From a bacterium (lineage in GTDB: Bacteria; UBP7; UBA6624; JBBIMK01), in assembly GCA_037444445.1 (NCBI GenBank), contig JBBIMK010000004.1, forward strand, positions 60,001 to 92,000: a DNA stretch of 32,000 nucleotides, given 5' to 3'. This document shows positions 5,236-22,011 of this stretch, piece by piece (the first letter of the stretch is position 1; the number at the start of each line of letters is the position of its first letter). The notes under the pieces were generated by a model, which had not been told where the DNA came from, did not search any database, and saw only the letters and a list, made by a program, of their open reading frames with translations. Made by a program: the position numbers and the translations under genes.

Positions 5236-6471
5236 TTATGAAATAGCGGAGGTTACCACGCCTGCGCCCACGGTTTTTCCACCTTCGCGAACGGCGAAGC
5301 GAACACCTGCGTCCATAGCCACCGGGTAAATCAATTCCACCTCCATTAACACATGGTCACCCGGGTTGGCAAATTGCACCTCTTGCTTCGTGTCGGGGTC
5401 CATCAGGCGGAGGATACCCCCGGTCACATCAGCGGTTCTGACGAAGAACTGGGGCCGGTAGCCTGGGACGAAAGGCGTGTGGCGACCACCCTCTTCCTTC
5501 GTCAGGACATAGGTATCTGCGACAAATTTTTTGAACGGCTTCACCGAGCCGGGCTTGGCCAGCACCTGACCCCGCTCCACCTCTTCTTTTGCGATTCCTC
5601 GGAGGAGAACGCCCACATTATCTCCTGCCCGGGCATCATCGAGGATTTTTCGGAACATCTCCAGGCTGGTGGCTACGGTAGTGCGGATTTCACCGGACAG
5701 ACCGACGATGTCCACCTCCTCACCTGGCTTGAGGATGCCCTTTTCCACACGGCCCGTGACCACAGTTCCTCGTCCTGTGATGGTAAAGATGTCCTCAATG
5801 GGCATAAGAAAGGGCTTATCCACATCTCGGGTGGGGGAGGGTATGTAACGGTCCATCGCATCAATTAATTCCCACACAGGCCCGCACCAGGGGCATTCTC
5901 TCTTTCCACAGGCACACTCCATGGACTTCAAGGCGGAGCCCTGAATAATCGGGCAGTCTGGGTCGAACTGATACTTTTTCAACAGTCCGCGCACATCTTC
6001 TTCAATCAAGGCCACCATGTCCTTCCAGCCTTCTCCCTCGGATTGCTGGAGAATGTCGGTCTTATTGATGAAAACGAGGATAGCGGGGACATTCACCTGG
6101 CGAGCCAGGAGGATATGCTCCCGGGTCTGGGGCATCGGGCCATCGTCCGCTGCCACTACGAGGACGGACCCATCCATCTGGGCTGCGCCAGTAATCATAT
6201 TTTTGATGTAGTCCACATGCCCCGGGCAATCAATGTGAGCATAATGACGCTGGGGAGATTCATATTCCGCATGGTGGACGTTGATGGTGACGCCTCGCGC
6301 TTTCTCTTCGGGTGCGTTATCAATCTCCTCGTAGGATTTCGCCACCGCCAGATTCGCCTTCGCCAGAACCTTGGTGATGGCGGAGGTCAAAGTCGTCTTG
6401 CCATGGTCTACATGACCGATGGTGCCGATGTTCACATGTTCCTTACGCCGCTCAAATTTTTCTTTTGCCAT
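5236..6471 (-). CDS. tuf: Elongation factor Tu
   Basis: 411 aa with [15 protein letters not shown] and NK.D G-motifs. An AGGAGG SD lies upstream (complement of 6481-6486). Confidence 0.98.
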
Positions 6472-6514
6472 TTCTTCTACCTCCTGCCTTTATTTTCTTT
6501 TATCCTGACCCGAG

Positions 6515-6587
6515 AGCCCATGATCGGGATTGAACCGATGACCTCTTCCTTACCAAGGAAGCGCTCTGCCGGCTGAGCTACATGGGC
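6515..6587 (-). tRNA. tRNA-Thr (anticodon GGU)
   Basis: Hand-folded cloverleaf on the minus strand: acceptor GCCCATG/CATGGGC, D arm GCTC..GAGC, anticodon arm CTTCC-TTGGTAA-GGAAG, T arm ATCGG-TTCAATC-CCGAT. 73 nt, with no encoded CCA. Confidence 0.9.
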
Positions 6588-6619
6588 TATCCGGCTCTGA
6601 TTGCGTTCCCACCCTGGCG

Positions 6620-6692
6620 AGCGGGAGACGGGACTCGAACCCGCGACCCTCAGCTTGGAAGGCTGATGCTCTTCCACCTGAGCTACTCCCGC
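6620..6692 (-). tRNA. tRNA-Gly (anticodon UCC)
   Basis: Acceptor GCGGGAG/CTCCCGC, anticodon arm TCAGC-CTTCCAA-GCTGA, T arm GCGGG-TTCGAGT-CCCGT. 73 nt, with no encoded CCA. Confidence 0.9.
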
Positions 6693-6702
6693 AGAAGCAT
6701 CC

Positions 6703-6785
6703 TGGAGGGGGCAGGATTTGAACCTGCGAAGCCTTCCGGCAATGGGTTTACAGCCCATCCCCTTTGGCCACTCGGGCACCCCTCC
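6703..6785 (-). tRNA. tRNA-Tyr (anticodon GUA), type II with long variable arm
   Basis: GGAGGGG acceptor, anticodon arm ATGGG-CTGTAAA-CCCAT, 14-nt variable arm, T arm GCAGG-TTCAAAT-CCTGC. It closely parallels the E. coli tRNA-Tyr layout. The order Tyr-Gly-Thr-tuf mirrors the E. coli tyrU-glyT-thrT-tufB arrangement. Confidence 0.9.
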
Positions 6786-6834
6786 TCCGCCACAGGCGAG
6801 ATATTTGCCCATCTGCTCAAATCCAAAATTATAA

Positions 6835-6864
6835 AGTATAATAGACCTATACCCATTCTGTCAA
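6835..6864 (-). promoter_or_regulatory. Putative sigma70-type promoter for the tRNA-tuf operon
   Basis: On the minus strand there is a consensus -35 TTGACA (6864-6859), an 18-nt spacer, and -10 TATACT (6840-6835). It lies about 50 nt upstream of the tRNA-Tyr 5' end. Confidence 0.4.
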
Positions 6865-6884
6865 GTATCTTACAATTATTAGTG

Positions 6885-7571
6885 ATGAAACCCGGATGCC
6901 TCTTCATCCTCGCCACCCCGATTGGAAACCTTCAGGACCTATCACCCAGAGCCCTAAAGGTGCTTAAAGAAAAAAACCTATTCTGCATTGAAAATACGCA
7001 CTCCCTTAAAAAAATTCTTACCTCCTTTTCCCTATCTTCGCCTCAGCATATTATATCTTACTATGGTGAGAAAGAAAAATCAAGAGTGGGGAAAATACTC
7101 CATTGGCTCAGGGAGGGTAAGGATGTAGTCCTGGCGACTGAGAGTGGGACGCCAGGGGTATCTGACCCGGGGATGTATCTCGTCCGTGCGGCACTAAAGG
7201 AGGGAATACCGGTGGTTCCCGTGCCGGGTCCATCTGCCCTGTCCACCGCTCTTTCAGTGAGCGGCTTCCCTTCCACTCCTTCCATTTTTCTGGGCTTCTT
7301 GCCCGCCCGAAGAGGGAAACGGAGAAAACTTCTGAAAGCCTGCGGCAATTTAAAGGCTACCCTCGTGATATTCGTCCCCCCGCATGATGCTATCTCTCTC
7401 CTGCAAGAACTGCTGGAGATTCTGGGCAACCGTGAGGCCACTCTCTGCCGGGAAATGACCAAAATGTTTGAGGAAATTAAACTCTCCACTCTCTCTGAAT
7501 TTCTCCAGGATTTTCAATCCCGGAAGGAAATTCGGGGTGAGATCACCCTCGTCATCAGCGGAAAGAAATAA
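6885..7571 (+). CDS. rsmI: 16S rRNA (cytidine1402-2'-O)-methyltransferase RsmI
   Basis: The track ORF 6582..7571 is trimmed to ATG 6885, because its upstream part is the antisense of three tRNAs. Motifs seen: LFILATPIGNLQDLSPRALKVLKE, ESGTPGVSDPG, and VPGPSA of the tetrapyrrole-methylase-fold RsmI family. Confidence 0.85.
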   Translation: MKPGCLFILATPIGNLQDLSPRALKVLKEKNLFCIENTHSLKKILTSFSLSSPQHIISYYGEKEKSRVGKILHWLREGKDVVLATESGTPGVSDPGMYLVRAALKEGIPVVPVPGPSALSTALSVSGFPSTPSIFLGFLPARRGKRRKLLKACGNLKATLVIFVPPHDAISLLQELLEILGNREATLCREMTKMFEEIKLSTLSEFLQDFQSRKEIRGEITLVISGKK

Positions 7572-7639: not shown

Positions 7640-9262
7640 CTACTCACCCACAGAACTGCACAGAGTTTTCACGGTAGCCTGCGTTGTGGTGCTGGTGACT
7701 TTCATCTCTTGAATAGTTGTGTTCGTAGCGAAAGATGCCTTCATAGATGTGGTAGAACTTACGCTCTTCAGTGAAGCATCCTCCATTATGGCGGAAGTAT
7801 CCTGACTGAAGTCGGGTGGGCAATCAGATGAAATAAGACCATTGGTATCCAACTTCAAAATCCAGAGGTCTGAGCAGGGATACCCATCACAGTTTCCCCC
7901 TGCACCGAAAGTAGTGGTAGAGCCTACCACAATGTAACCGCCATCTTTCGTGTGCTGAACCGAGCGGGCGACATCCTGCCCAGACCCACCGTAAGCCTTC
8001 TGCCACTGTATATTACCAGAAGAATCCAATTTCAGAACCCAAGCATCAGCATATCTTCCACCCAGAGAATTCGTTTCACCAGCCACTATATAGCCACCAT
8101 CAGCCGTCAGGTCAATGGAATACGGATAACTCACACCTTCGTCCGAGTAGATTTTCTGCCACTTCATATGGCCATGAGAATTCAATTTTAGAATCCACAA
8201 ATCATTACCAGTTTCCTGAGAAAGGCTGGTAGCACCTGCCACGATGTATCCTCCATCGGGGGTCTGATGGATGGCATTTGCACTTGTAGGTGATAGGCCA
8301 CCATATGCCCTTATCCAGACCACTTGCCCTTTAGCATCTACCTTCAGAAGCATAGCATTTTCCACCCCGTAGATATTCCAAATACCCTCTACTTTTTGAA
8401 TAAATTTCCCTCCCAGGATATATCCACCACCGGTGGTTTGCAGGATACAACAGGGAAAAGCAAAATAAGGACTGTCAGAAGTTTTTTGCCACTCCATATT
8501 TCCCCTGGAATCCAGTTTCAAAATCCAAATTTTACTGCGAGTTTCACAGTTCACACATGCAGTGATGATATATCCGCCATCTTTCGTTTGTAAGATATAA
8601 GATGGCTCTTCCTTTGCTGCGGTGCCGTAAGTCTTTTGCCAGAGTATATCTCCGTCAGCGCTCAGTTTCAGGACCCAGAGGTCGACAGTATCAGCACCAC
8701 GAAGAGAGGTGTATCCTGCCACAATATATCCGCCGTCGGTGGTTTGCCGGATAGATTTTGCCACATCCGTAGAGATACGATGATAGGCCTTTTGCCATTT
8801 TACATTTCCCACAGAGTCTAAGTTCAGAATCCAGAAATCATTTTTGTGGCCATAGACGGTAGTAGAACCCACGACGACGAATCCCCCCTCCCTTGTCTGC
8901 TGAACAGCGTATGCGTAATCACTGGAGGGACCGCCGTAAGTTTTTGCCCAGGTACTTATCACAGAGGTTCTCGTAAAAGTGGCTCTGCAAGATGTATTGG
9001 CATTCATCGTTATTCTGCCATCCGCACAGTCCGGGTCCCCGGACCATCCATCAAAATGCCAGAGTGGGGCAGGTAGAGCCACAAGGCTGACAATTGCCCC
9101 GTGGTAAAAGAATCCTGAGCACTCCGTTCCGCAGTGAATTCCTGCTGGTTCACTTTTCACCATTCCATTCCCTTTTTTTATCACCGTCAATTGATACTGG
9201 GGAGGTTCTTCTATTCCGCCGAAAGTGAACACACTCATTGCAAAAATGCATATTTCAGCCAT
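7640..9262 (-). CDS. Probably secreted repeat protein: divergent InlB-B-repeat-like N-domain plus seven ~50-aa propeller-like repeats
   Basis: The N-domain is YQLTVIKKGNGMVKSEPAGIHCGTEC...FDGWSGD..C....RATF. It is followed by seven repeats of the pattern W.K.YGG...D.A.S..QT.DGGYIVAG.T......D.W(V/I)LKLD..G...W. The true start may lie upstream at a non-canonical codon (see findings). Confidence 0.75.
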   Translation of the reverse strand: MAEICIFAMSVFTFGGIEEPPQYQLTVIKKGNGMVKSEPAGIHCGTECSGFFYHGAIVSLVALPAPLWHFDGWSGDPDCADGRITMNANTSCRATFTRTSVISTWAKTYGGPSSDYAYAVQQTREGGFVVVGSTTVYGHKNDFWILNLDSVGNVKWQKAYHRISTDVAKSIRQTTDGGYIVAGYTSLRGADTVDLWVLKLSADGDILWQKTYGTAAKEEPSYILQTKDGGYIITACVNCETRSKIWILKLDSRGNMEWQKTSDSPYFAFPCCILQTTGGGYILGGKFIQKVEGIWNIYGVENAMLLKVDAKGQVVWIRAYGGLSPTSANAIHQTPDGGYIVAGATSLSQETGNDLWILKLNSHGHMKWQKIYSDEGVSYPYSIDLTADGGYIVAGETNSLGGRYADAWVLKLDSSGNIQWQKAYGGSGQDVARSVQHTKDGGYIVVGSTTTFGAGGNCDGYPCSDLWILKLDTNGLISSDCPPDFSQDTSAIMEDASLKSVSSTTSMKASFATNTTIQEMKVTSTTTQATVKTLCSSVGE

Positions 9263-9397: not shown

Positions 9398-11299
9398 TCA
9401 AATTTTCCGGGCAATAAAAAGGGTTAATTCCGATTCCATCAAAGGATAGCGATAAAGCGTATGGACCTGAGTAGATAGCCACAAGGATAGAGGCGCTGAC
9501 TCCAGGGTATGGGCTGTGGGAGGCGAAAGGGCAATGGCTACCCAGCCATCCGGGCGGGCTAACTGGATGAAGCGTTCCAGGTAGTAGAGTTCGGGAGGGC
9601 AGGCAGATAGACGCTCCAGCACTTCGGGCGTAATCTCTTCATCCAGGGGCTCCTGCCTCGTCCAGTCATAATGCTCCACCAGGTCAAAAATTTTCCGATA
9701 ATCCACCCGCCTTTTCTTCTTCTCCATCGTCTGAAAGCCGGGAAGAAATTCCGCCAGGGTTACAGGTTTCTTCTCCTCCACCCGATTCCAGATTTCATAA
9801 TTTCTAAATAATTTATTCATTACGAGAGTTGCCCGGCGAATCTCATAAGGAGGAAGGCCGTAAAAGGCTTGTAAAGCCGGTGAATAAACAGGAGAAGAAT
9901 GAGGATGGAGGGATTCTGGTTGTGCGAGAAGTTGAGCCCAATTCTGGATGTGATTTTTTTTAGTATCCGTAGATGGGATACCCCATACGAGGTGGAATTG
10001 ATGGGGTTCTACGCCCCATTCTAACAGGTTCAATAACGGGTCTGAAATAAACAGATTGAATCGTTTCTGCTTACCGGAATGCACCCAGCCTTCTCTGAAC
10101 CCGGGTCGTGGCTCTACTCCGAAGAGATTTTCATCGGGGATGTGAAAGATTTCGCCAGCGTGGTGGAGGCCCTGCCCTGTTCCACAAAAAAGATGCAGGA
10201 TTTTCGCTCCTGAAGGAAAAGCCATGCCTGTTAGTTTTTTTAGAAGGCCGAGAATCTCTCTTTCCTGGTCTGCTTCTTTTTCGGTGGTAGGCATACCCAT
10301 CATTGTCGGGATGGCGACTCCTGGAAGGGGAGTCTGGACCATATTTGCAAGGAGATGTTGGTATTCCAGCAGAGGTTCATCCACAGTCAGGGGAGTCAGC
10401 CCCGCCTGGATAAGGCGGAGGTTACCTTCTGCTGGGGAAGTAGAAGGTGGGAACTGGCAGATACGGACTCTTTTCCCGCGTCGGTGAGCCTGGAGGCATT
10501 CTCTTTCCATATTTCCTTCTGGTCGAATCTGGACGGCGAGAATCAGGTCAGAGAGGGCAAGGATCAGCCGGTCTCGCTGGGCGCCGCTACCCGGCGTGCC
10601 CACATCTTGCGGTGAGAAGGGGGAAAGAACGAGGGTAGTTTTCGGGTCAAACAGTTCACCAAGTCTGCGGGCTAAAGGGGAAGGTTCTCTTTCTTTCTTC
10701 CCGGCAAAGGCTTGAAAAATCCCCCGGTCAGGAACCAGAAGCAAAGGGGAGCGGCGGATTTTGCTTCTCAAGGCGGGCAAATTATACGACACTCTCGTGG
10801 GGCTTGCCACGATGGTAAGCCCCATCTCCGCCGCCAGGTCTGCCAGCGCATTCGTCACCTCCAGTCCCCTCCGGTCCACCGTCCGGGAGTTCAAGAATGC
10901 AACCTTCGGCGAGGTAAGAACATCCGGATTCCCGTGTAAACATAAAACCGGCGGCGGATACTCAAAATACTTTCTCAATCCCGACGGATAGCCCTCATCC
11001 AGCACCGTGATTGTGTTTATCCCCCACTCCTGTAGCCTCGCTATTTCTTCTTCCCCCTTGCGGAAAACCCGTTTGCGGTTCCGATTCAGAAAATTTGCAA
11101 TAGGACCGGGCAAATGATATTCATCCTGATAAACTCTTTCCGACAGGCGGAAAAATTCCTCAAGGTTTCTTCCCTCTCTTTCATTAACTTTTAGGATTCT
11201 CCAGATAAGAGCAGACCGAATTCCCGGGAGAGTAAAAAGGAGGAGAAAAAGTTCGCGTTCATTCATTGGAAATTTCGCCCTCATCCTTCTCTTACTCAC
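9398..11299 (-). CDS. Divergent DprA/Smf-like protein fused to a class-I SAM-methyltransferase-like C-terminal domain
   Basis: aa ~20-305 align by eye with DprA: LPGIRS HhH-like N-terminus, DEGYPSGL, PPPVLCLHGNPDVL..PKVAFLNSR, GLTIVAS, RDRLILALSDLILAVQ, RGKRVRICQFP, GNLRLIQAG. aa ~360-633 carry the motif-I-like ILHLFCGTGQG, GVE, the beta4-like FHLVWGIPS and ARPDGWVAIALS. Confidence 0.6.
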   Translation of the reverse strand: MSKRRMRAKFPMNERELFLLLFTLPGIRSALIWRILKVNEREGRNLEEFFRLSERVYQDEYHLPGPIANFLNRNRKRVFRKGEEEIARLQEWGINTITVLDEGYPSGLRKYFEYPPPVLCLHGNPDVLTSPKVAFLNSRTVDRRGLEVTNALADLAAEMGLTIVASPTRVSYNLPALRSKIRRSPLLLVPDRGIFQAFAGKKEREPSPLARRLGELFDPKTTLVLSPFSPQDVGTPGSGAQRDRLILALSDLILAVQIRPEGNMERECLQAHRRGKRVRICQFPPSTSPAEGNLRLIQAGLTPLTVDEPLLEYQHLLANMVQTPLPGVAIPTMMGMPTTEKEADQEREILGLLKKLTGMAFPSGAKILHLFCGTGQGLHHAGEIFHIPDENLFGVEPRPGFREGWVHSGKQKRFNLFISDPLLNLLEWGVEPHQFHLVWGIPSTDTKKNHIQNWAQLLAQPESLHPHSSPVYSPALQAFYGLPPYEIRRATLVMNKLFRNYEIWNRVEEKKPVTLAEFLPGFQTMEKKKRRVDYRKIFDLVEHYDWTRQEPLDEEITPEVLERLSACPPELYYLERFIQLARPDGWVAIALSPPTAHTLESAPLSLWLSTQVHTLYRYPLMESELTLFIARKI

Positions 11300-11459
11300 T
11301 CATTATATCACGAGAATTTCAAACCAATTTTCATTGGGTGAAAGTTTTTGGGGTGGGCAAAATGCTCCTCCGCTCCGAAGATTTCTGGCTTCACCCTCCA
11401 TAAGAGAAGGCAGGGCACAGGGGTTTCGCACGCATGTATGTTATACTTAACTGTAGTGC

Positions 11460-12497
11460 ATGGAGATGTGGGGCCGGGTATTTCCGTGGGTAGTTTTTAA
11501 CATTTTTGTGGTGGTAATGCTCGCCCTGGACCTGGGCATTCTTCATCGCAGAGCGCATATTATCCGGATGAAAGAAGCCCTCCTCCTCAGCCTTTTCTGG
11601 ATTTCTCTCGCTGTTGTCTTCTGCCTGGGAATTTCCATCTGGCAGGGGCAAACCAAAGCCCTTGAATTCTTGACCGGATATATCATTGAGGAGTCGTTAA
11701 GCGTGGACAATCTCTTCGTATTTTTGTTGATTTTCACTTATTTTAGAGTCCCTGCCGAATACCGGCATAAGGTACTATATTGGGGCATTCTCGGTGCCAT
11801 CCTGATGCGGTTGATTTTTATTCTAACGGGAGTGGCTTTAATCCACCTGTTTCACTGGGTGATTTACATTTTCGGCGTATTTCTCATTTTTACCGGCTAC
11901 AGGATGGCCTGGCAAAAGGATGTAGAGATTCATCCAGAGAAGAATCCGGTGCTGAAGTTTTTCCGCCGGTTCTTTTCCGTAACAGAAAATTATGTGGGTG
12001 GGAAATTTTTTGTGAAGAAGGAAGGCCGTCTGTGCGCCACCCCTCTTCTGATTGTGCTTTTGATGGTGGAAAGCACGGATGTGGTTTTTGCGATAGATTC
12101 AATCCCTGCTATCCTTGCTATCACTCATGACCCGTTCCTCGTGTATACCTCCAATATCTTCGCCATCCTGGGGCTGAGGTCCATTTACTTTGCCCTTGCC
12201 GGGCTGATGCAATTATTTGACTATCTTCATTATGGGCTTTCTGCTATCCTCATCTTTGTGGGAGTGAAGATGCTGATTTCCGACTTTTATAAGATACCCA
12301 TCGGCATCGCCCTGGGAGTAGTGGCAGGTATGTTACTGCTGTCAATCCTGACTTCTCTTCTGTTTGCCGGTCAAAAGGGCAAGCCTATCGTTTCACGAGA
12401 AGATTTGCCGGAATCTGAAGGGAAGCACACAGAATCCAAAATTTTTTCTTTGCCAGAGGTTCAGGGTCCGCCACATAATCCCGGGCAGGGCGAATAA
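11460..12497 (+). CDS. TerC-family integral membrane protein (Alx/TerC-like)
   Basis: 345 aa and multi-TM, with the signature EESLSVDNLFVFLLIF and a second half containing ESTDVVFAIDSIPAILAIT. Confidence 0.85.
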   Translation: MEMWGRVFPWVVFNIFVVVMLALDLGILHRRAHIIRMKEALLLSLFWISLAVVFCLGISIWQGQTKALEFLTGYIIEESLSVDNLFVFLLIFTYFRVPAEYRHKVLYWGILGAILMRLIFILTGVALIHLFHWVIYIFGVFLIFTGYRMAWQKDVEIHPEKNPVLKFFRRFFSVTENYVGGKFFVKKEGRLCATPLLIVLLMVESTDVVFAIDSIPAILAITHDPFLVYTSNIFAILGLRSIYFALAGLMQLFDYLHYGLSAILIFVGVKMLISDFYKIPIGIALGVVAGMLLLSILTSLLFAGQKGKPIVSREDLPESEGKHTESKIFSLPEVQGPPHNPGQGE

Positions 12498-14690: not shown

Positions 14691-15755
14691 ATGAAAAAAA
14701 GCCAACTCTTTCGGAATAAAGTCAAAGCCATTGAAGTAAGTAAGGGGAAGCGGATTTCGGAAGTATTATCAGAGATGTCGCAAACAGGGTTTCAGGGAAG
14801 GAAACTGGCAGAAGCCCTAAAAGTTCTGGAAAGGATGCTAAAAGACCCCTGCGTTACTATTTTTATGGGTTATGCCGGCTCCCTCTCCACCGCCGGACAA
14901 TGGAAGATAATTCAGTGGCTGATAGAAAATCATTATATAGATGTGTTGGTTTCTACCGGGGCGAATGTTTCGGAAGATATTGTGGAAGCAATGGGGTTCT
15001 CTTATTATCAGTACGACCGCCCGGTGGCAGATAAAACTTTGTTTCAGGAGGGGTATAACCGATACTACGATGTATGCGGGAAAGAATCGGATTACTATCG
15101 GATGACGGAATTGATTGCGGAATTCATTCTCACATTGAAAGAAAACCATCCTTACTCATCAAGGGAATTTCTGGCGGCTTTTGGGAGGTGGCTGGGGGAG
15201 AAAGGGATAGAGAGCCTCGTGACAGCGGCAGTGCGGGAAAAGATACCCATCTTCTGCCCTGCCATCATAGACAGCCCCTACGGCGACGCCGCTTTGATAG
15301 CGAAAAGCAAAGGCTTCCACCTGACCCTGGATGCGGTGAAAGATTATGTGGAGTTTATGAGCCTGGCTGAGAAAATTCAAGAAACGGGGGTGATTTATAT
15401 CGGCGGTGGCGTACCGAAAGATTTTATTCAACTCCTCGCTGTCACCTCGGATTTGCTTTACGCTGACCTGAAAGTCCCGAACAAGAAAGGAAAAAAACGG
15501 GCTGGAACCCATGAAACTTACTACCCACACAAATATGCCCTCCAGATTACCACTGACTCACCCCAGTGGGGCGGATTGTCAGGAGCCACCTTTGAGGAAG
15601 CCGTCTCCTGGGGAAAGGAACAGCCCGAGGGAGGGCTGGTCCAGTGCTATTGCGATGCTACCATTGCCTTGCCCATCCTTTCTCACGCACTGGCGGAAAA
15701 AATGCAGGGAAAGAGGAAGGGAACTGACTTCTCCAGATTCTTCCTCCTCACCTGA
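14691..15755 (+). CDS. Deoxyhypusine synthase-like protein (DHS/homospermidine-synthase superfamily)
   Basis: 354 aa with GYAGSLSTAG, LVSTGANVSEDI, IGGGVPKDF and AVSWGKEQ, which retains the Lys equivalent to the catalytic Lys of eukaryotic/archaeal DHS. SD GAGGAGGG upstream. Confidence 0.85.
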   Translation: MKKSQLFRNKVKAIEVSKGKRISEVLSEMSQTGFQGRKLAEALKVLERMLKDPCVTIFMGYAGSLSTAGQWKIIQWLIENHYIDVLVSTGANVSEDIVEAMGFSYYQYDRPVADKTLFQEGYNRYYDVCGKESDYYRMTELIAEFILTLKENHPYSSREFLAAFGRWLGEKGIESLVTAAVREKIPIFCPAIIDSPYGDAALIAKSKGFHLTLDAVKDYVEFMSLAEKIQETGVIYIGGGVPKDFIQLLAVTSDLLYADLKVPNKKGKKRAGTHETYYPHKYALQITTDSPQWGGLSGATFEEAVSWGKEQPEGGLVQCYCDATIALPILSHALAEKMQGKRKGTDFSRFFLLT

Positions 15756-16942: not shown

Positions 16943-19012
16943 ATGATGGCGAGTATTTTCAAAATTGTATTTCGTAGCGGTGCTTTCGTCGCTGCGGTTT
17001 TTTTCATTCACTCCACCACTCTACCCGGGCAGGAGGAGGTTCCCCTGATTTCGCGGAGAGTGTTCTTCGGGAATCCGGACAGGGCAAGCCCCCAATTAAG
17101 CCCGGATGGCACACAACTGGCATTTCTGGCTCCGGATGAGGGTGTGCTGAATGTCTGGGTAGGTTCTGTGGACGACCCGACCTCTGCGAAGCCGGTCACC
17201 CACGACCGTCTTCGTGGCATCAGGATATACTTCTGGGCTTACACCAACCGTCACATCATTTATTTGCAGGACAAGAACGGGGACGAGAACTGGCGGGTCT
17301 ATAGCGTGGATTTAAGGTCGGGGCAGGTGATGGACCTGACCCCTGTGGAGGGCGTGCAAGCCCGTATCCAGCAGGTCAGTGAGAAGTTTCCTGCGGAGAT
17401 TCTTATCGGGCTGAACGACAGGAATCCGCAATTCCACGACCTGTATCGGGTGAATATCCTCAGCGGTAGCAAAAGGCTGATTCAGGAAAACCCGGGTTTT
17501 CTTGACTTTCTCACCGATGACTACTATCGGGTTCGCTTTGCTTTCCGCCTGACGCCCGACGGAGGAAACGAGGTGCTGAAACCCACGGAAGAAGGGAAGT
17601 GGGAGCCTTTTATGACCATTTCTCAGGAAGATTTACTGACCACCCAACTTATCAGATTTGATAAGTCTAACCGGGTTCTGTATATGACAGACAGCCGGGG
17701 GCGCAACACCGCAGCGCTGGCTTCCATTGACCTCCGAACCGGAGAGGAGGAAATTATCGCTGAAGACCCCCGAGCGGACATCAGTGATGTGATTGCCCAC
17801 CCTGCGGAAAAGAATATGGAAGCGGTCGCCTTCACCTACGACCGGAAGGAGTGGAAGATTCTTGACCCTGCATTGAGGGAGGATTTCGCCTATCTCAGCA
17901 CCATCAGTAAAGACGATTTGAATATCACCAGTCAGTCGCTGGATGACCGGAAGTGGATTGTGACATTTACGGTGGACAACGGTCCCATTCGCTATTATGT
18001 GTATGACCGGGATTTGAAAGAGGCGAAGTTTTTGTTTACCAATCGCAAGGCGCTGGAAGGCTTGCCTCTGGCAAAAATGCATCCGGTGGTCATACGCTCC
18101 CGGGATAACCTGAACCTGGTGAGCTATTATACCCTGCCAGTGTGGAGCGATGCGGATGGCAACGGCAAGCCGGAAAAACGATTGCCCCTGGTTCTCACGG
18201 TTCACGGCGGCCCCTGGTGGCGCGACAACTGGGGCTATAATCCCTGGCATCAGTGGTTTTCTAACCGGGGCTATGCAGTGATGAGTGTAAACTTCCGCGG
18301 CTCCACTGGCTTCGGCAAGAAGTTTATCAACGCCGGCGACAAAGAGTGGGGCGGAAAGATGCACGATGACCTCATAGATGCGGTGAACTGGGCTGTTGAG
18401 CAGGGAATTGCTGACCCAAAGCATATCGCCATTATGGGTGGAAGTTACGGAGGCTACGCCACTCTCGTGGGTATGACCTTCACGCCGGATGATTTCGCCT
18501 GCGGGGTGGACATCGTGGGGCCCTCTAACCTTGTCACCTTTATGAACGCCATCCCCCCTTACTGGAAGCCTCTGTTAGACCTCTTCACATCCCGCGTGGG
18601 CGACCACCGAACAGAAGAAGGCAGGGCGTTTCTCCTCGCCCGCTCTCCTCTCACTTATGTGGACCGGATACAGAAGCCGCTGTTAATCGGACATGGTGCC
18701 AACGACCCGAGGGTGAAGCAGGCAGAGTCGGAGCAGATTGTAAAAGCCATGCAGGGGAAGAACATTCCCGTTACTTATGTTCTTTACCCGGACGAGGGGC
18801 ATGGATTTGCCCGCCCACAGAACAACCTGTCCTTTTATGCCATCACCGATGTATTTCTTGCAAAATGCCTGGGCGGGCGCTACGAGCCCATCGGCGATGA
18901 CCTCACAGGCTCCAGCCTCCTGGTCCCCGCTGGGGCTGACCTGATTCCCGGCTTGCCCCGGGCTCTGAAAGCCCTATCCGCACCCACGAAAATCCTGCCT
19001 GCACTCCCCTGA
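16943..19012 (+). CDS. S9-family serine peptidase (prolyl oligopeptidase / acylaminoacyl-peptidase type), secreted
   Basis: N-terminal beta-propeller region plus C-terminal alpha/beta hydrolase with GGSYGGY (nucleophile Ser), HGANDPRV (Asp) and EGHGF (His). Start set at ATG 16943: AGGAGG at 16933-16938, and the product begins with the signal-like MMASIFKIVFRSGAFVAAVFFIHS. The track start at 16853 is the alternative. Confidence 0.88.
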   Translation: MMASIFKIVFRSGAFVAAVFFIHSTTLPGQEEVPLISRRVFFGNPDRASPQLSPDGTQLAFLAPDEGVLNVWVGSVDDPTSAKPVTHDRLRGIRIYFWAYTNRHIIYLQDKNGDENWRVYSVDLRSGQVMDLTPVEGVQARIQQVSEKFPAEILIGLNDRNPQFHDLYRVNILSGSKRLIQENPGFLDFLTDDYYRVRFAFRLTPDGGNEVLKPTEEGKWEPFMTISQEDLLTTQLIRFDKSNRVLYMTDSRGRNTAALASIDLRTGEEEIIAEDPRADISDVIAHPAEKNMEAVAFTYDRKEWKILDPALREDFAYLSTISKDDLNITSQSLDDRKWIVTFTVDNGPIRYYVYDRDLKEAKFLFTNRKALEGLPLAKMHPVVIRSRDNLNLVSYYTLPVWSDADGNGKPEKRLPLVLTVHGGPWWRDNWGYNPWHQWFSNRGYAVMSVNFRGSTGFGKKFINAGDKEWGGKMHDDLIDAVNWAVEQGIADPKHIAIMGGSYGGYATLVGMTFTPDDFACGVDIVGPSNLVTFMNAIPPYWKPLLDLFTSRVGDHRTEEGRAFLLARSPLTYVDRIQKPLLIGHGANDPRVKQAESEQIVKAMQGKNIPVTYVLYPDEGHGFARPQNNLSFYAITDVFLAKCLGGRYEPIGDDLTGSSLLVPAGADLIPGLPRALKALSAPTKILPALP

Positions 19013-19207
19013 CTTCCCCGCTGGCTTGCAAATCTCTGCAAAATATACCTGCCCACTTTCGTGGTGCCAGCCCCGATGACGAACATCTGGGAAGAAAACT
19101 GGCTATTCTGGAAAAAAAAGCGGTATACAGAATAGTGATATATGTGAGTGGAAAAAAGAGCGCCGTAAAGCAGAAGAGGAAAAAGGCGGGTGCGTTCAGA
19201 AAAAAAG

Positions 19208-19213
19208 TATAAT
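19208..19213 (+). promoter_or_regulatory. Candidate -10 box (TATAAT) for the bioY leader
   Basis: A perfect TATAAT about 195 nt upstream of the bioY ATG. It would give a long 5' UTR containing the structured element at 19258-19340. Confidence 0.3.
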
Positions 19214-19257
19214 ATGGGCAAGCCGGTGAAGGAAAGACCACCACAGCGTATAACACA

Positions 19258-19340
19258 GCATAAAAGGTTCCCGCGGGAGATAGCCTGCGTCATCTCACGG
19301 GGTCACCCAAATTTCGGCTACGCCGAAACTTCTTTTATGC
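19258..19340 (+). promoter_or_regulatory. Structured leader element, copy L (closing stem + long hairpin + short hairpin + U-rich tract)
   Basis: A perfect 9-bp closing stem GCATAAAAG (19258-19266) / CTTTTATGC (19332-19340). Inside it is an imperfect hairpin at 19267-19308, then CCCAAA, then the perfect 7-bp hairpin TTTCGGC-TAC-GCCGAAA (19312-19328). A homologous layout occurs at 20480-20539. Confidence 0.5.
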
Positions 19341-19407
19341 CGGGAATGTTTAATGAAATTGTGGGCAGTGACTTGAAAACATCGAAAAATTAGAAAGGAG
19401 AAAAGCA

Positions 19408-20076
19408 ATGCAGAATATAGCAATAGCGGAAAAGTATTTTAGAGCAAGATATTTATTTTTCAAATGGCGTTACAGTTTAGCTCTTGTAAATAAGATTGCT
19501 TTAGCATTAGGGATGGCCTGTGTGACTGGACTTTTTGCCCAAATAAAAGTCTCTCTTCCCTGGACTCCGACACCAATCACCGGTCAGACTTTTGCTGTAT
19601 TATTGGCTGGAGTCCTTCTTGGGAGATGGTGGGGAGGAATAAGCCAGGCAATATATGTAGTATTAGGTGTGGTTGGTGTTCCCTGGTTTGCAGGCTTAAG
19701 AGGGGGTTATGGCGTTCTCATTGGTCCCAGCGGAGGATATATAATTGGTTTTATCTTAGCTGCCTTGTTCATTGGCCATTTCACTGACAAATATATTAGA
19801 GCAAGGAGTTTTCTTTGCATGTTTACCTTTATGCTATTTGCCAATTTTGTCCTGATACACATACCGGGGTTAATACAGTTAGGAGTATGGTTTTACATAG
19901 CCAAAGGCACTGGATTAACTCTTTGGAAGCTGCTCTGGATGGGAACTATTCCATTCGTTATCGGGGACATAACTAAAATTGTGGGTGCGGCAGCATTGGC
20001 GAAAGCCATTACTCCCAAGGAAGCCTACAATGGTGAAGTGGATGCCGAGAGGGCAAAGAAATGGCGAATATTTTGA
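19408..20076 (+). CDS. bioY: Biotin transporter BioY (ECF S-component family)
   Basis: 222 aa and multi-TM, with PITGQTFAVLLAGVLLG and GPSGGYIIGFILAA, typical of BioY. SD AAAGGAG upstream. Confidence 0.88.
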   Translation: MQNIAIAEKYFRARYLFFKWRYSLALVNKIALALGMACVTGLFAQIKVSLPWTPTPITGQTFAVLLAGVLLGRWWGGISQAIYVVLGVVGVPWFAGLRGGYGVLIGPSGGYIIGFILAALFIGHFTDKYIRARSFLCMFTFMLFANFVLIHIPGLIQLGVWFYIAKGTGLTLWKLLWMGTIPFVIGDITKIVGAAALAKAITPKEAYNGEVDAERAKKWRIF

Positions 20077-20477
20077 AAATTCGTGCTCACCACCTCTTAT
20101 GCATACAAGGTTTTCAAGGATACGGTTATAGTGAAGATTTTGTAAAGAATATGATTGAAATTATTAAGAATATAGATTCAAATCCTGAATCAGAAATAAT
20201 TACTGAATGTGACATTATCTGTTCTTATTGCTCTCACAATGTAGAAGGAGTATGTCAAAAAAAGCCCGATTCTGCTCAAAAGGTTAAAAATATGGATATG
20301 CGAATTTTGAGAAAATTACAATTAAAAGATGGGATAAGAGGCAGAGTCAAAGATTTTCTTTCCCTTGCAAATACAAAGTTCAGAAATATTTCTGCCGTTC
20401 AAGATATATGTGGCGATTGTGATTGGAAAGAGAAATGCCTTTGGTTTATTTCACGAGTTGCCCACAACGGCAGATAA
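20061..20477 (+). CDS. DUF1284-family Cys-rich (putative Fe-S/metal-binding) protein
   Basis: An IRAHHLLCIQGFQGYGYS N-terminus plus a CSYCSHN...C...CGDC..KEKC cysteine pattern. Overlaps the bioY end by 16 nt. Confidence 0.7.
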   Translation: MANILKIRAHHLLCIQGFQGYGYSEDFVKNMIEIIKNIDSNPESEIITECDIICSYCSHNVEGVCQKKPDSAQKVKNMDMRILRKLQLKDGIRGRVKDFLSLANTKFRNISAVQDICGDCDWKEKCLWFISRVAHNGR

Positions 20478-20479
20478 CA

Positions 20480-20539
20480 GCGGATAAAAGGGAAATCAAA
20501 GATTTCCCCAAATTGCCTTCGGCAACTTCTTTTATCCGC
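20480..20539 (+). promoter_or_regulatory. Structured element, copy M (three-way-junction-like)
   Basis: A perfect 11-bp closing stem GCGGATAAAAG (20480-20490) / CTTTTATCCGC (20529-20539). It encloses GGAAATC-AAA-GATTTCC (20491-20507), CCAAA, and TTGCC-TTC-GGCAA (20513-20525), then CTT. Confidence 0.5.
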
Positions 20540-20590
20540 AAGCCGTTATGTGAAATCGGGCTATGGATATAAAATAGGATAATAGATAGA

Positions 20591-21949
20591 ATGAGGAAAA
20601 GATTAGAAGAAACAATTGTTATTTTTATTAGTACCCTTGAATGGAGTGTTTTAGCTGCAATCATCGGGATGGCAGTTGGATTATCAACAACCGTATTTTT
20701 GAAAATACTCAATTGGACTACATTTCTCACTCATCAATATTCTTATTATTATCTTTTCCTACCTGTTGCATTCTTTTTAAGTGCTTTATGTGTTCAATAT
20801 TTAGCACCTGATGCAGAAGGTCATGGAACAGAAAAGGTTATTGAAGCAATCCATAGATATTCTGGTAAGATAAAAGCAGTAGTTATTCCTGTGAAACTTG
20901 TTGCGTCTGTAATCACAATAGCCTTTGGTGGTTCAGCAGGGAAGGAAGGTCCTTGTGCTCAAATAGGTGGAGGAGTGTCATCTGTTTTTTGTGATATATT
21001 TAGATTTGATGATATTGATAGAAAAAAGTTGGTAATATGCGGTATTAGTGCAGGATTTGCTTCTGTATTTGGCACACCAGTAGCCGGTGCTATTTTTGGT
21101 GTTGAAGTTCTTTTTATTGGAAGTATCTTATATGATGTTCTTTTACCTTCATTTATTGCGGGAATTGTAAGTTATCATATCTCTTCGGCACTCAGAATTA
21201 CCTATTTTTATCATCCATTAAAATTTGTTCCTGTGTTTAGTGAATATCTTTTAATAAAAGTGATTATTGGAGGAATTTTTTGGGGCCTTGTTTCGTTTCT
21301 TCTGATTGAGACAATGAGATTTTTCCAAAATCAATCTTCTAAAATAGAATTATGGAAGCCATTGAAGGGTTTAATTGGCAGTTTGCTTCTTGTTGTTTTG
21401 ACTTTTATCTTCTCAACACAATTTCTCGGGCTTGGTTTGGAAACGATCCAGTCAACATTAGAAGGAACAAAAGTTATCTGGTATGCCTTTATTCTAAAAA
21501 TTATTTATACTGCTATTACCCTGAACTTTGGTGGTAGTGGTGGGGTAATAACACCTATATTTTTCATTGGAGCAACTTCTGGCTCACGATTTGCAGATTT
21601 ATTCGGGCTGGATAAAGCAACATTTTCTGCCATTGGTTTAGTGAGCGTTTTAGCAGGTGCAACCAATACTCCTATTGCGTCAAGTATAATGGCAATAGAG
21701 CTTTTTGGAGCAGGTATTGCTCCTTATGCTGCTTTGTCTTGTATCATTAGTTTTCTTATAACAGGACACAGAAGTATCTATCCTTCTCAGATACTCGTGA
21801 TTAAAAAATCTCCATCTATACAAATAGAGATTGGCAAAGAAATAGAGGAAATAACGCCAACGGTTCAACCAGGGAGAAAAAGCCTCACAAATGCGATTTT
21901 AAGAATTAGTAGAAAAATGAAAGAAAAGATTATTAAAGTGAAAAGATAA
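20591..21949 (+). CDS. ClC-family chloride channel/transporter (no CBS domains)
   Basis: 452 aa and polytopic, with GHGTEK, GSAGKEGPCAQIGGG (gating Glu present) and GGVITPIFFIGA selectivity-filter-like motifs. Confidence 0.85.
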   Translation: MRKRLEETIVIFISTLEWSVLAAIIGMAVGLSTTVFLKILNWTTFLTHQYSYYYLFLPVAFFLSALCVQYLAPDAEGHGTEKVIEAIHRYSGKIKAVVIPVKLVASVITIAFGGSAGKEGPCAQIGGGVSSVFCDIFRFDDIDRKKLVICGISAGFASVFGTPVAGAIFGVEVLFIGSILYDVLLPSFIAGIVSYHISSALRITYFYHPLKFVPVFSEYLLIKVIIGGIFWGLVSFLLIETMRFFQNQSSKIELWKPLKGLIGSLLLVVLTFIFSTQFLGLGLETIQSTLEGTKVIWYAFILKIIYTAITLNFGGSGGVITPIFFIGATSGSRFADLFGLDKATFSAIGLVSVLAGATNTPIASSIMAIELFGAGIAPYAALSCIISFLITGHRSIYPSQILVIKKSPSIQIEIGKEIEEITPTVQPGRKSLTNAILRISRKMKEKIIKVKR

Positions 21950-21960
21950 TGGCACGACTT

Positions 21961-22011
21961 CGCCTAACACAGGGTAAGAGGTTCCTCCATCGGGGTCACC
22001 CAGATTCCGCC
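21961..22011 (+). repeat. Partial copy R of the element (similar to the 5' half of copy L)
   Basis: CGCCTAACACAGGGTAAGAGGTTCC matches L 19247-19271 at 20/25 positions. CATCGGGGTCACCCAGATTCCG matches L 19297-19317 at 18/21 positions over the shared 21-nt core. L carries about 22 extra nt between the two blocks. Confidence 0.55.

Follow-up and report, generated by a model that had tools for sequence, protein, structure and literature searches.

A bacterial fusion of a divergent DprA domain with a catalytically dead N6-adenine methyltransferase core, probably descended from a restriction-modification-like module

The 32,000-nucleotide stretch of bacterial DNA analyzed here (contig JBBIMK010000004.1, positions 60,001 to 92,000, hereafter the window) carries on its minus strand a gene (9398..11266) whose product joins a DprA-family domain to a catalytically dead core of a gamma-class N6-adenine methyltransferase (MTase). 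Comparison with its relatives suggests that the protein is probably a non-enzymatic two-domain DNA-binding protein, descended from the modification subunit of a rare restriction-modification (R-M)-like module. DprA is near-universal, receives single-stranded DNA (ssDNA) as it enters and passes it on to RecA, and R-M systems decide the fate of incoming DNA; to our knowledge, the two have previously been linked only in trans, in Helicobacter pylori. A first-pass annotation made from the nucleotide sequence alone had proposed a DprA fold fused to a degenerate MTase-like domain and had considered such a fusion undescribed. Nothing relevant was found in the literature (open-access papers and bioRxiv preprints), neither on the fusion nor on the two-gene module in which its intact relatives reside.

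The C-terminal half: a methyltransferase core without its catalytic motifs

No family was assigned to the C-terminal half (aa 329-622, 9401..10282, minus strand) by Pfam, NCBIfam or PHROGs, no Pfam MTase model matched it even at E = 1, and PADLOC returned only a marginal match to mad2 (E 0.019). Word-indexed homologue searches yielded one match with the protein and five with the family profile, and a genome-collection scan with the single window protein gave no match. The family was opened up by searching exhaustively with the C-terminal half in HMMER: phmmer with aa 326-633 against 1.84 billion representative proteins returned 21 matches, 20 of them distant (E 3.8e-13 to 5e-4), and all 20 carry PF02384 (N6_Mtase) and/or PF07669 (Eco57I). 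A profile built from the relatives matched RM.BsaXI (1.8e-22), M.TaqI (5e-14) and also Type I HsdM subunits in the Protein Data Bank (PDB). Modelled alone with AlphaFold2 (AF2), the half folds into a seven-stranded class-I core at a predicted local distance difference test score (pLDDT) of 76.6, and Foldseek found 408 PDB matches at E<=1e-3; among the matches listed, essentially all are MTases dependent on S-adenosylmethionine (SAM), including 2f8l. The class-I MTase-like domain of about 300 aa that had been suspected here is thus borne out by phmmer, profile and structure comparison alike.

The conserved motifs of the core can be followed through the alignment, and they are unevenly preserved. 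Motif I, the SAM-binding glycine loop (ILHLFCGTGQG, 10169..10201, minus strand; IIDPACGEGIFL in relatives), is genuine, although its coordinates extend one codon beyond the 10172-10201 first quoted for it. Its acidic residue is replaced by His in the window protein and by Asn in the closest relative, P0001. Motif II (GVE, 10112..10120, minus strand) keeps an acidic residue, which we take to be the equivalent of E71 of M.TaqI that binds the SAM ribose; the position is Ser in the more distant relative P0009. The segment ISDPLL aligns on motif III with its Asp retained. At the end of beta4, FHLVWGIPS (9971..9997, minus strand) occupies the position of motif IV, where intact relatives read FDLVIGNPP[YF], as expected from its first reading as the site of (D/N)PPY. 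Further on, ARPDGWVAIALS (9524..9559, minus strand) comprises the end of a conserved E-R-F-x-Q-L-A-[KR]-P-[GD]-G helix together with strand beta5; alignment A2 shows no variation at its E, R, A, P and G, and it matches the FLE..L.PGG element of M.TaqI and RM.BsaXI. ERFIQLARPDGW aligns likewise on the conserved helix and beta5. The GVE, FHLVWGIPS and late ARPDG strand noticed in the first-pass annotation therefore all fall on genuine elements (motif II, beta4 with motif IV, and beta5) in the alignment with relatives.

Between beta4 and beta5 lies a family-specific, mostly helical insert of about 115 aa (aa 433-546, 9629..9970, minus strand), which is also present in the active relatives, contains conserved Y-x-I-W and D-W-x-R patches and is partly modelled at low pLDDT. 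Motif X (GQFFTP; G-x-F-F/Y-T-P), present in all intact fusions, is missing from the window protein, P0001 and P0009. The window protein stops directly after beta7; since the chain ends there, it has no target-recognition domain (TRD). No Methylase_S match was found in the protein, and the 32-kb window holds no S-like open reading frame (ORF), no other DprA- or MTase-family ORF and no gene of the partner family described below.

The N-terminal half: a DprA-family domain

Residues 81-310 (10337..11026, minus strand) form a DprA Rossmann-fold domain of the SLOG type. PF02481 (DNA_processg_A) matches with 51 bits against a gathering cutoff of 29.6 (E 1.4e-13), and a subfamily profile matches DprA structures over the whole Rossmann domain (3uqz 3.8e-26, 3maj 7e-20, H. 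pylori DprA (HpDprA) 3e-16). The AF2 model of the whole protein, computed from a 27-sequence alignment (mean pLDDT 81.7, predicted template modelling score 0.81), reaches a pLDDT of about 90 over aa 1-300; in Foldseek it matches 3uqz (E 2.6e-14), and the target-normalised template modelling score to the HpDprA core is 0.80-0.82. The Rossmann domain is preceded by an all-helical region (aa 1-80, 11027..11266, minus strand) resembling the sterile-alpha-motif-like N-domain of Streptococcus pneumoniae DprA, with helices predicted over residues 3-80 at pLDDT 79-95. Since the alignment with 3uqz spans 295 columns on a 282-residue target, this N-domain is included in the match. The proposal that aa ~20-305 follow the DprA layout is thereby upheld by Pfam, by profile comparison with the PDB and by AF2 with Foldseek, and the structural check suggested with it, Foldseek on AlphaFold models, found a DprA fold with the whole protein and a class-I MTase fold with the C-terminal half. 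A flexible linker (aa 311-328, 10283..10336, minus strand), with pLDDT below 50 at residues 312-326, separates the two halves.

The NCBIfam equivalog models failed on this protein (TIGR00732 46 bits against a cutoff of 191; PRK10736 24 against 495). Because the equivalog score is so far below its cutoff, canonical DprA function is not simply transferable, and judged from its sequence the window protein is a DprA-family domain and not a canonical DprA orthologue. The replacements in conserved DprA residues that had been listed are all present: NSR in place of GSR (10883-10891), ASPTRVSY in place of SGLARGID (10784-10807) and RDRLI in place of RNRII (10562-10576), all on the minus strand. But not all of them amount to a loss. 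The ssDNA-binding signatures of DprA are G-S/T/A-R and F/L/Y-x-x-R-N/D, and the ssDNA affinity of HpDprA is controlled by R52, R143 and N144 (PMC3950713). The second signature permits R-N/D, so that the R-D of RDRLI is an allowed variant, and the window protein, reading N-S-R and G-A-Q-R-D at the two sites, retains both arginines, including that of G-S/T/A-R, as well as the N/D position, and loses the Gly and the hydrophobic, aromatic platform. From the residues that are kept, ssDNA binding by the DprA half is plausible.

The subtype is not confined to fusions. Three unfused DprA-like proteins of 291-292 aa from metagenomes (P0039, P0040 and P0041) are ~31% identical to the N-terminal half and have in common with the window protein a subfamily-specific EP..AR....FDPKT.LV.SPF segment and the RDRLI and GNME motifs. 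Since these three stand alone, the divergent DprA subtype evidently also occurs unfused.

Intact relatives form a two-gene module

Far from being a one-off, the fusion of DprA and MTase domains recurs in at least 12 intact forms in metagenome-assembled genomes (MAGs) of Pirellulales, WOR-3, Stahlbacteria, Cloacimonadota and others. All finds of the module are from uncultured bacteria. Seven of the phmmer matches also have an N-terminal DprA domain, and seven more full-length fusions came from scanning the GTDB species representatives (three from Pirellulales and one each from Candidatus Stahlbacteria, Cloacimonadota, WOR-3 and an unclassified MAG). In public records these proteins bear the automatic labels "DprA", "N-6 DNA methylase" or "hypothetical". 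All 12 intact fusions have GQ[FY]FTP, a motif I of the DPACGEG type and NPP[YF], the last of which, in a regular-expression and HMM scan covering 15 loci, was found in none of the three degenerate members (the window protein, P0001 and P0009). Most intact fusions have in addition a TRD of the Methylase_S type, or a separate S-like gene as at locus L006.

Every one of the 12 is followed downstream by a second MTase-family gene, which usually abuts it, and 11 of the 12 partners belong to one family (among them L002:4454-6226, L003:3294-4871, L008:3196-4857, L010:3850-5661, L012:3693-5465, L013:10854-12509, L014:10857-12620 and L015:3886-5652). The typical partner has D[WY]LI...P.L.[IV]E(A/G)(K/E) in its N-terminal part, a pattern typical of PD-(D/E)xK nucleases, and also an MTase core whose motif IV reads NPPG or NPPA, thus missing the aromatic residue, and which has no TRD. 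Exceptions are the partner at L006, which consists of an MTase core only, and the Pirellulales copies, which read EGE. Weak HSDR_N matches were obtained in five of six partners tested, in the same region of the profile (E 1.7e-4 to 0.018), and in the PDB the partner's top match is RM.BsaXI, a Type IIB enzyme. The partner may be a nuclease subunit which uses an inactive MTase domain as a scaffold. From domain content we infer that the ancestral module was a self-contained R-M-like pair of Type IIB or Type I-like kind, made up of a DprA-MTase-TRD protein and a putative PD-(D/E)xK nuclease-MTase-like subunit.

The genes flanking these modules vary by locus. In a split variant, the TRD-less fusion P0018 is preceded by a small AF2212-like gene and a 65-aa ORF (L006:934-1340, L007:59-465), and an S-subunit-like gene (277 aa) and a 287-aa gene lie between P0018 and the partner MTase. 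A 1298-aa nSTAND-type NTPase (PF25199) is encoded directly downstream of one fusion/partner module (L002:6749-10645), which hints at a defence neighbourhood. Among 72,556 plasmid and 50,697 phage records none had both halves of an intact fusion (coverage <=36%), and neither a scan of viral contigs found the fusion nor BFVD a similar one; an origin from a mobile element or phage is therefore unsupported.

A degenerate clade under purifying selection

The window protein groups with two relatives in a degenerate clade; motif X, motif IV and the TRD are missing from all three members. P0001 is 93% identical to it over the same length (622 aa) and is encoded on a Logan contig (L001) with identical gene order, the orthologue being contained in SRR11582170; P0009 (607 aa, from a MAG) is 33% identical. 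Neighbour-joining trees of either half place the three together, and within the clade the DprA halves are 41% identical, as against <=32% to any intact fusion. Because the three members group in both halves, the data point to a single ancient loss of the motifs and the TRD. Further members were not found in scans of JGI metagenomes. No partner gene is present at the three degenerate loci in the sequence at hand, which for P0009 is a contig of only 2.9 kb.

Between the gene and its orthologue, the ratio of nonsynonymous to synonymous differences (pN/pS) is 0.23 (p = 5e-15), an estimate from a single orthologue pair with ~112 substitutions. The two halves give the same value of 0.21 (DprA half, p = 2.9e-8; MTase core, p = 4e-8); the ratio is 0.19 over aa 430-555, nearly coincident with the insert, and it lies inside the range of the neighbouring housekeeping genes (0.07-0.38). 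Over aa 300-345, the linker with its flanks, the ratio of nonsynonymous to synonymous rates (dN/dS) is 0.44, above that of the rest of the protein. The frame of 622 codons is intact in two genomes which differ at 6% of nucleotides. With pN/pS near 0.2 in both halves, the gene is not a pseudogene and the dead core is being maintained, and since P0009 keeps the same architecture at 33% identity this maintenance appears to be long-term.

At synonymous sites the gene has diverged about twice as far (dS 0.16 for 9398-11266 against L001:7357-9225) as the genes around it (0.04-0.09), and its dN is raised too; possible causes are a distinct history of mutation or recombination, or effects of codon usage.

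Proposed function and alternatives

The picture that we favour, and hold to be somewhat better than an even bet, is that of a conserved orphan exapted from an R-M-like ancestor. In the ancestor, DprA would have brought the MTase, and via the partner a nuclease, to ssDNA. The window protein would be unable to methylate DNA; its DprA half would still bind ssDNA, and the dead MTase core would have a structural part, in contacting DNA or in oligomerisation. Its cellular role would then most likely be DprA-like: to coat ssDNA or protect it, and possibly to pass it to RecA. A coupling of DprA to MTases is biologically sensible in light of the precedent of H. pylori (Dwivedi et al. 2013, PMC3597690), in which DprA makes physical contact with the MTases of R-M systems, stimulates them and shields DNA that enters the cell. 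From ShosA it is known that DprA-like domains of defence systems act by way of ssDNA and RecA (PMC12961424). More tentatively, and with appreciably less confidence, one may speculate that the intact relatives constitute an undescribed R-M or defence module in which DprA is built into the MTase/specificity subunit and paired with a nuclease on a non-catalytic NPPG scaffold, so that DNA which enters or replicates in single-stranded form would be specifically marked or attacked, and that the window protein is its domesticated dead descendant, now acting as a DprA-like recombination or DNA-protection factor.

Several points weigh against this picture. The score of 46 bits with the DprA equivalog model (cutoff 191) is low, and the signature Gly, the aromatic platform (Gly at the equivalent of F140) and the SGxARGID loop are all altered. 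The nuclease call on the partner comes from a motif and sub-threshold Pfam matches (E 1.7e-4 to 0.018). Only three members of the degenerate clade are known, so that their genomic contexts say little, and with a 2.9-kb contig a more distant partner of P0009 is possible. Finally, the estimate of selection derives from one orthologue pair and some 112 substitutions.

Alternatively, the protein might be a ligand sensor or regulator, in which the SLOG-type pocket of DprA or a residual SAM pocket binds SAM, S-adenosylhomocysteine or a nucleotide, possibly regulating the repeat-protein gene next to it within some conflict or signalling system. The window protein keeps the glycines of motif I, the Glu of motif II and the Asp of motif III, a gene on the same strand begins 135 nt downstream, and DprA belongs to the SLOG superfamily, members of which act in nucleotide-based conflict systems (PMC7824862). 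However, the acid of motif I differs between orthologues that are 93% identical (His versus Asn), and P0009, with Ser at the motif II acid and without the GLPPY of the window protein, indicates that the clade as a whole does not conserve a SAM pocket. An effector or DNA-binding regulator domain is absent as well, and the association with the neighbour is seen in two near-identical genomes only, not at P0009. We consider a sensor unlikely and, given that the SAM-pocket residues (motif I and motif II acids) are inconsistently conserved, favour a structural role of the core over ligand sensing.

Less probable again is that the protein works in the manner of ShosA or PsyrA, as a DprA-like antitoxin or part of an abortive-infection system, binding ssDNA and RecA and restraining a toxin until phage DNA appears. 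ShosA requires ssDNA binding and contact with RecA (PMC12961424). PADLOC matches PsyrA (7e-16) and ShosA (1.5e-8) to the N-terminal half, and Foldseek finds the ShosA structure 8zva (8.7e-11), but ordinary DprA is matched at least as well, and most of these matches extend over aa 86-165 only. ShosA and PsyrA have no MTase domain, and the real relatives of the window protein sit in MTase pairs, not in toxin-antitoxin pairs. There is no adjacent phosphoribosyltransferase (ShosT) or RecQ-like (PsyrT) toxin gene, the neighbours being TerC, a beta-propeller protein and TP_methylase, and with no toxin gene next to the gene we rejected this type of system.

The protein could also be an active MTase with an unconventional catalytic loop, for instance the GLPPY 40 residues further on, or with a substrate other than DNA adenine, as might be suggested by its class-I fold, a motif I still rich in glycine and the acids of motifs II and III. 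GLPPY (9845-9859, minus strand; the PPY tripeptide is aa 483-485 of the 633-aa ORF) lies within the insert, is not conserved and is remote from the place required of a catalytic loop, the end of beta4. Its absence from P0009, in which it is deleted, and its location in a poorly modelled part of the insert make it a coincidence, and we rejected it as a displaced catalytic motif. Together with the missing motif X (the contact to the methionine moiety of SAM), the lack of a TRD and the failure of all Pfam MTase models, this leaves catalytic activity highly improbable. Least probable of all is a functionless remnant of a decayed R-M module whose frame happens to be uninterrupted: the loss of catalytic motifs, specificity domain and partner gene, the extreme rarity (billions of proteins include a single close and a single distant relative) and the twofold elevation of dS and dN are in line with it, but the intact 622-codon frame in two genomes at 6% nucleotide difference, the pN/pS of ~0.2 per half (p ~1e-8) and the architecture kept in P0009 at 33% identity speak against it.

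Gene, start site and genomic surroundings

The minus-strand ORF at 9398-11299 is intact and encodes 633 aa when counted from its GTG. The conserved start, however, is an ATG at 11266; in L001 the 11-codon N-terminal extension is interrupted by an in-frame TAA, so that the true start is this ATG and the gene spans 9398..11266 (622 codons plus stop), in agreement with the 622 aa of P0001. Upstream, the intergenic region 11267..11459 is common to the gene and the divergent TerC gene, which begins at 11460, and is the presumed promoter site. The divergent arrangement claimed for a promoter there is real, but consensus scans for promoters and terminators around the gene did no better than on shuffled sequence; a TATAAT-like "gatataat" lies 5' of the start and is kept in L001.

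Downstream on the same strand, at a distance of 135 nt, follows a repeat-protein gene (7640-9262), which is convergent with a TP_methylase gene ending at 7571. The ORF coordinates thus reproduce the arrangement given by the first-pass annotation, with a divergent gene upstream, a same-strand gene downstream and a convergent gene end beyond. The functional pairing it had read into the two adjacent genes is not sustained: they are neighbours in two near-identical genomes only and not at P0009, and the partner that the family does conserve is the putative nuclease and MTase-like gene, which is missing here. We therefore rejected a functional operon, comparative support being absent. The repeat protein has 540 aa, in which an InlB B-repeat domain precedes beta-propeller repeats of the SBBP/delta-60 type (LipL53-like), and no obvious signal peptide is apparent at its N-terminus (MAEICIFAMSVFTFGG...).

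Elsewhere in the window, a cluster of tRNA genes (Thr/Gly/Tyr, 6514-6785, minus strand) is located immediately upstream of tuf (5236-6471). The program-made ORF 6582-7571 (plus strand) extends too far and runs over these tRNAs; going by the call in L001, the actual TP_methylase (RsmI-like) has about 228 aa. In a comparison of ProRS, the best match (P0043) is 98% identical, and the best named relatives are unclassified MAGs at 65%, ahead of Bacillota and Aminicenantes at about 60%. The region 19000-22000 has a G+C content of 0.36-0.44, compared with ~0.51 elsewhere, contains a voltage-gated chloride channel gene of the CLC kind (20591-21949) and may be of horizontal origin. The L001 counterpart of 14691-15755 (plus strand) has a deoxyhypusine synthase domain (PF01916) and adjoins two NAD-dependent epimerase/dehydratase genes. 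Deoxyhypusine synthase genes are uncommon in bacteria.

Significance and comparison with known systems

A covalent fusion of DprA and MTase that recurs in several phyla, each time with a putative nuclease partner, would be genomic evidence for a general coupling of ssDNA capture to methylation or restriction, and the intact fusions offer two-gene modules that can be cloned, such as L002:1598-6226 and L013:8001-12509; their interest would be higher still if the modules were indeed ssDNA-directed R-M or defence systems. The window gene is a candidate for a pseudoenzyme that a bacterium has exapted from a defence system, and for this gene the labels "DprA" and "N-6 DNA methylase" are both misleading.

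With DprA/Smf proteins (3uqz, 3maj, 4ljk/4ljr) it has in common the N-terminal helical domain and the Rossmann fold, but the canonical C-terminal winged helix is missing, its place being taken by the MTase-fold domain of ~290 aa. M.TaqI, Type I HsdM and Type IIB RM.BsaXI (PF02384/PF07669) resemble it over the whole catalytic core, a seven-stranded class-I fold, and gamma-class MTases and the window protein have the E-R-F..L-A-x-P-G-G element, the motif I glycines and the motif II and III acids in common; FxTP of motif X, NPP[YF] and the TRD are absent from the window protein, which has the extra insert of ~115 aa. ShosA and PsyrA have the DprA fold, and differ by their adjacent toxin gene and by having no MTase domain. 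In H. pylori, DprA and active MTases are separate proteins, whereas here they form one polypeptide in which the MTase part is dead. The direct relatives are the intact fusions (P0008/L002, L012-L015 and, from Pirellulales, L009-L011), which have the same domain order, DprA subtype and helical insert, and which, unlike the window protein, keep GQFFTP, DPACGEG, NPP[YF], mostly the TRD, and the partner gene.

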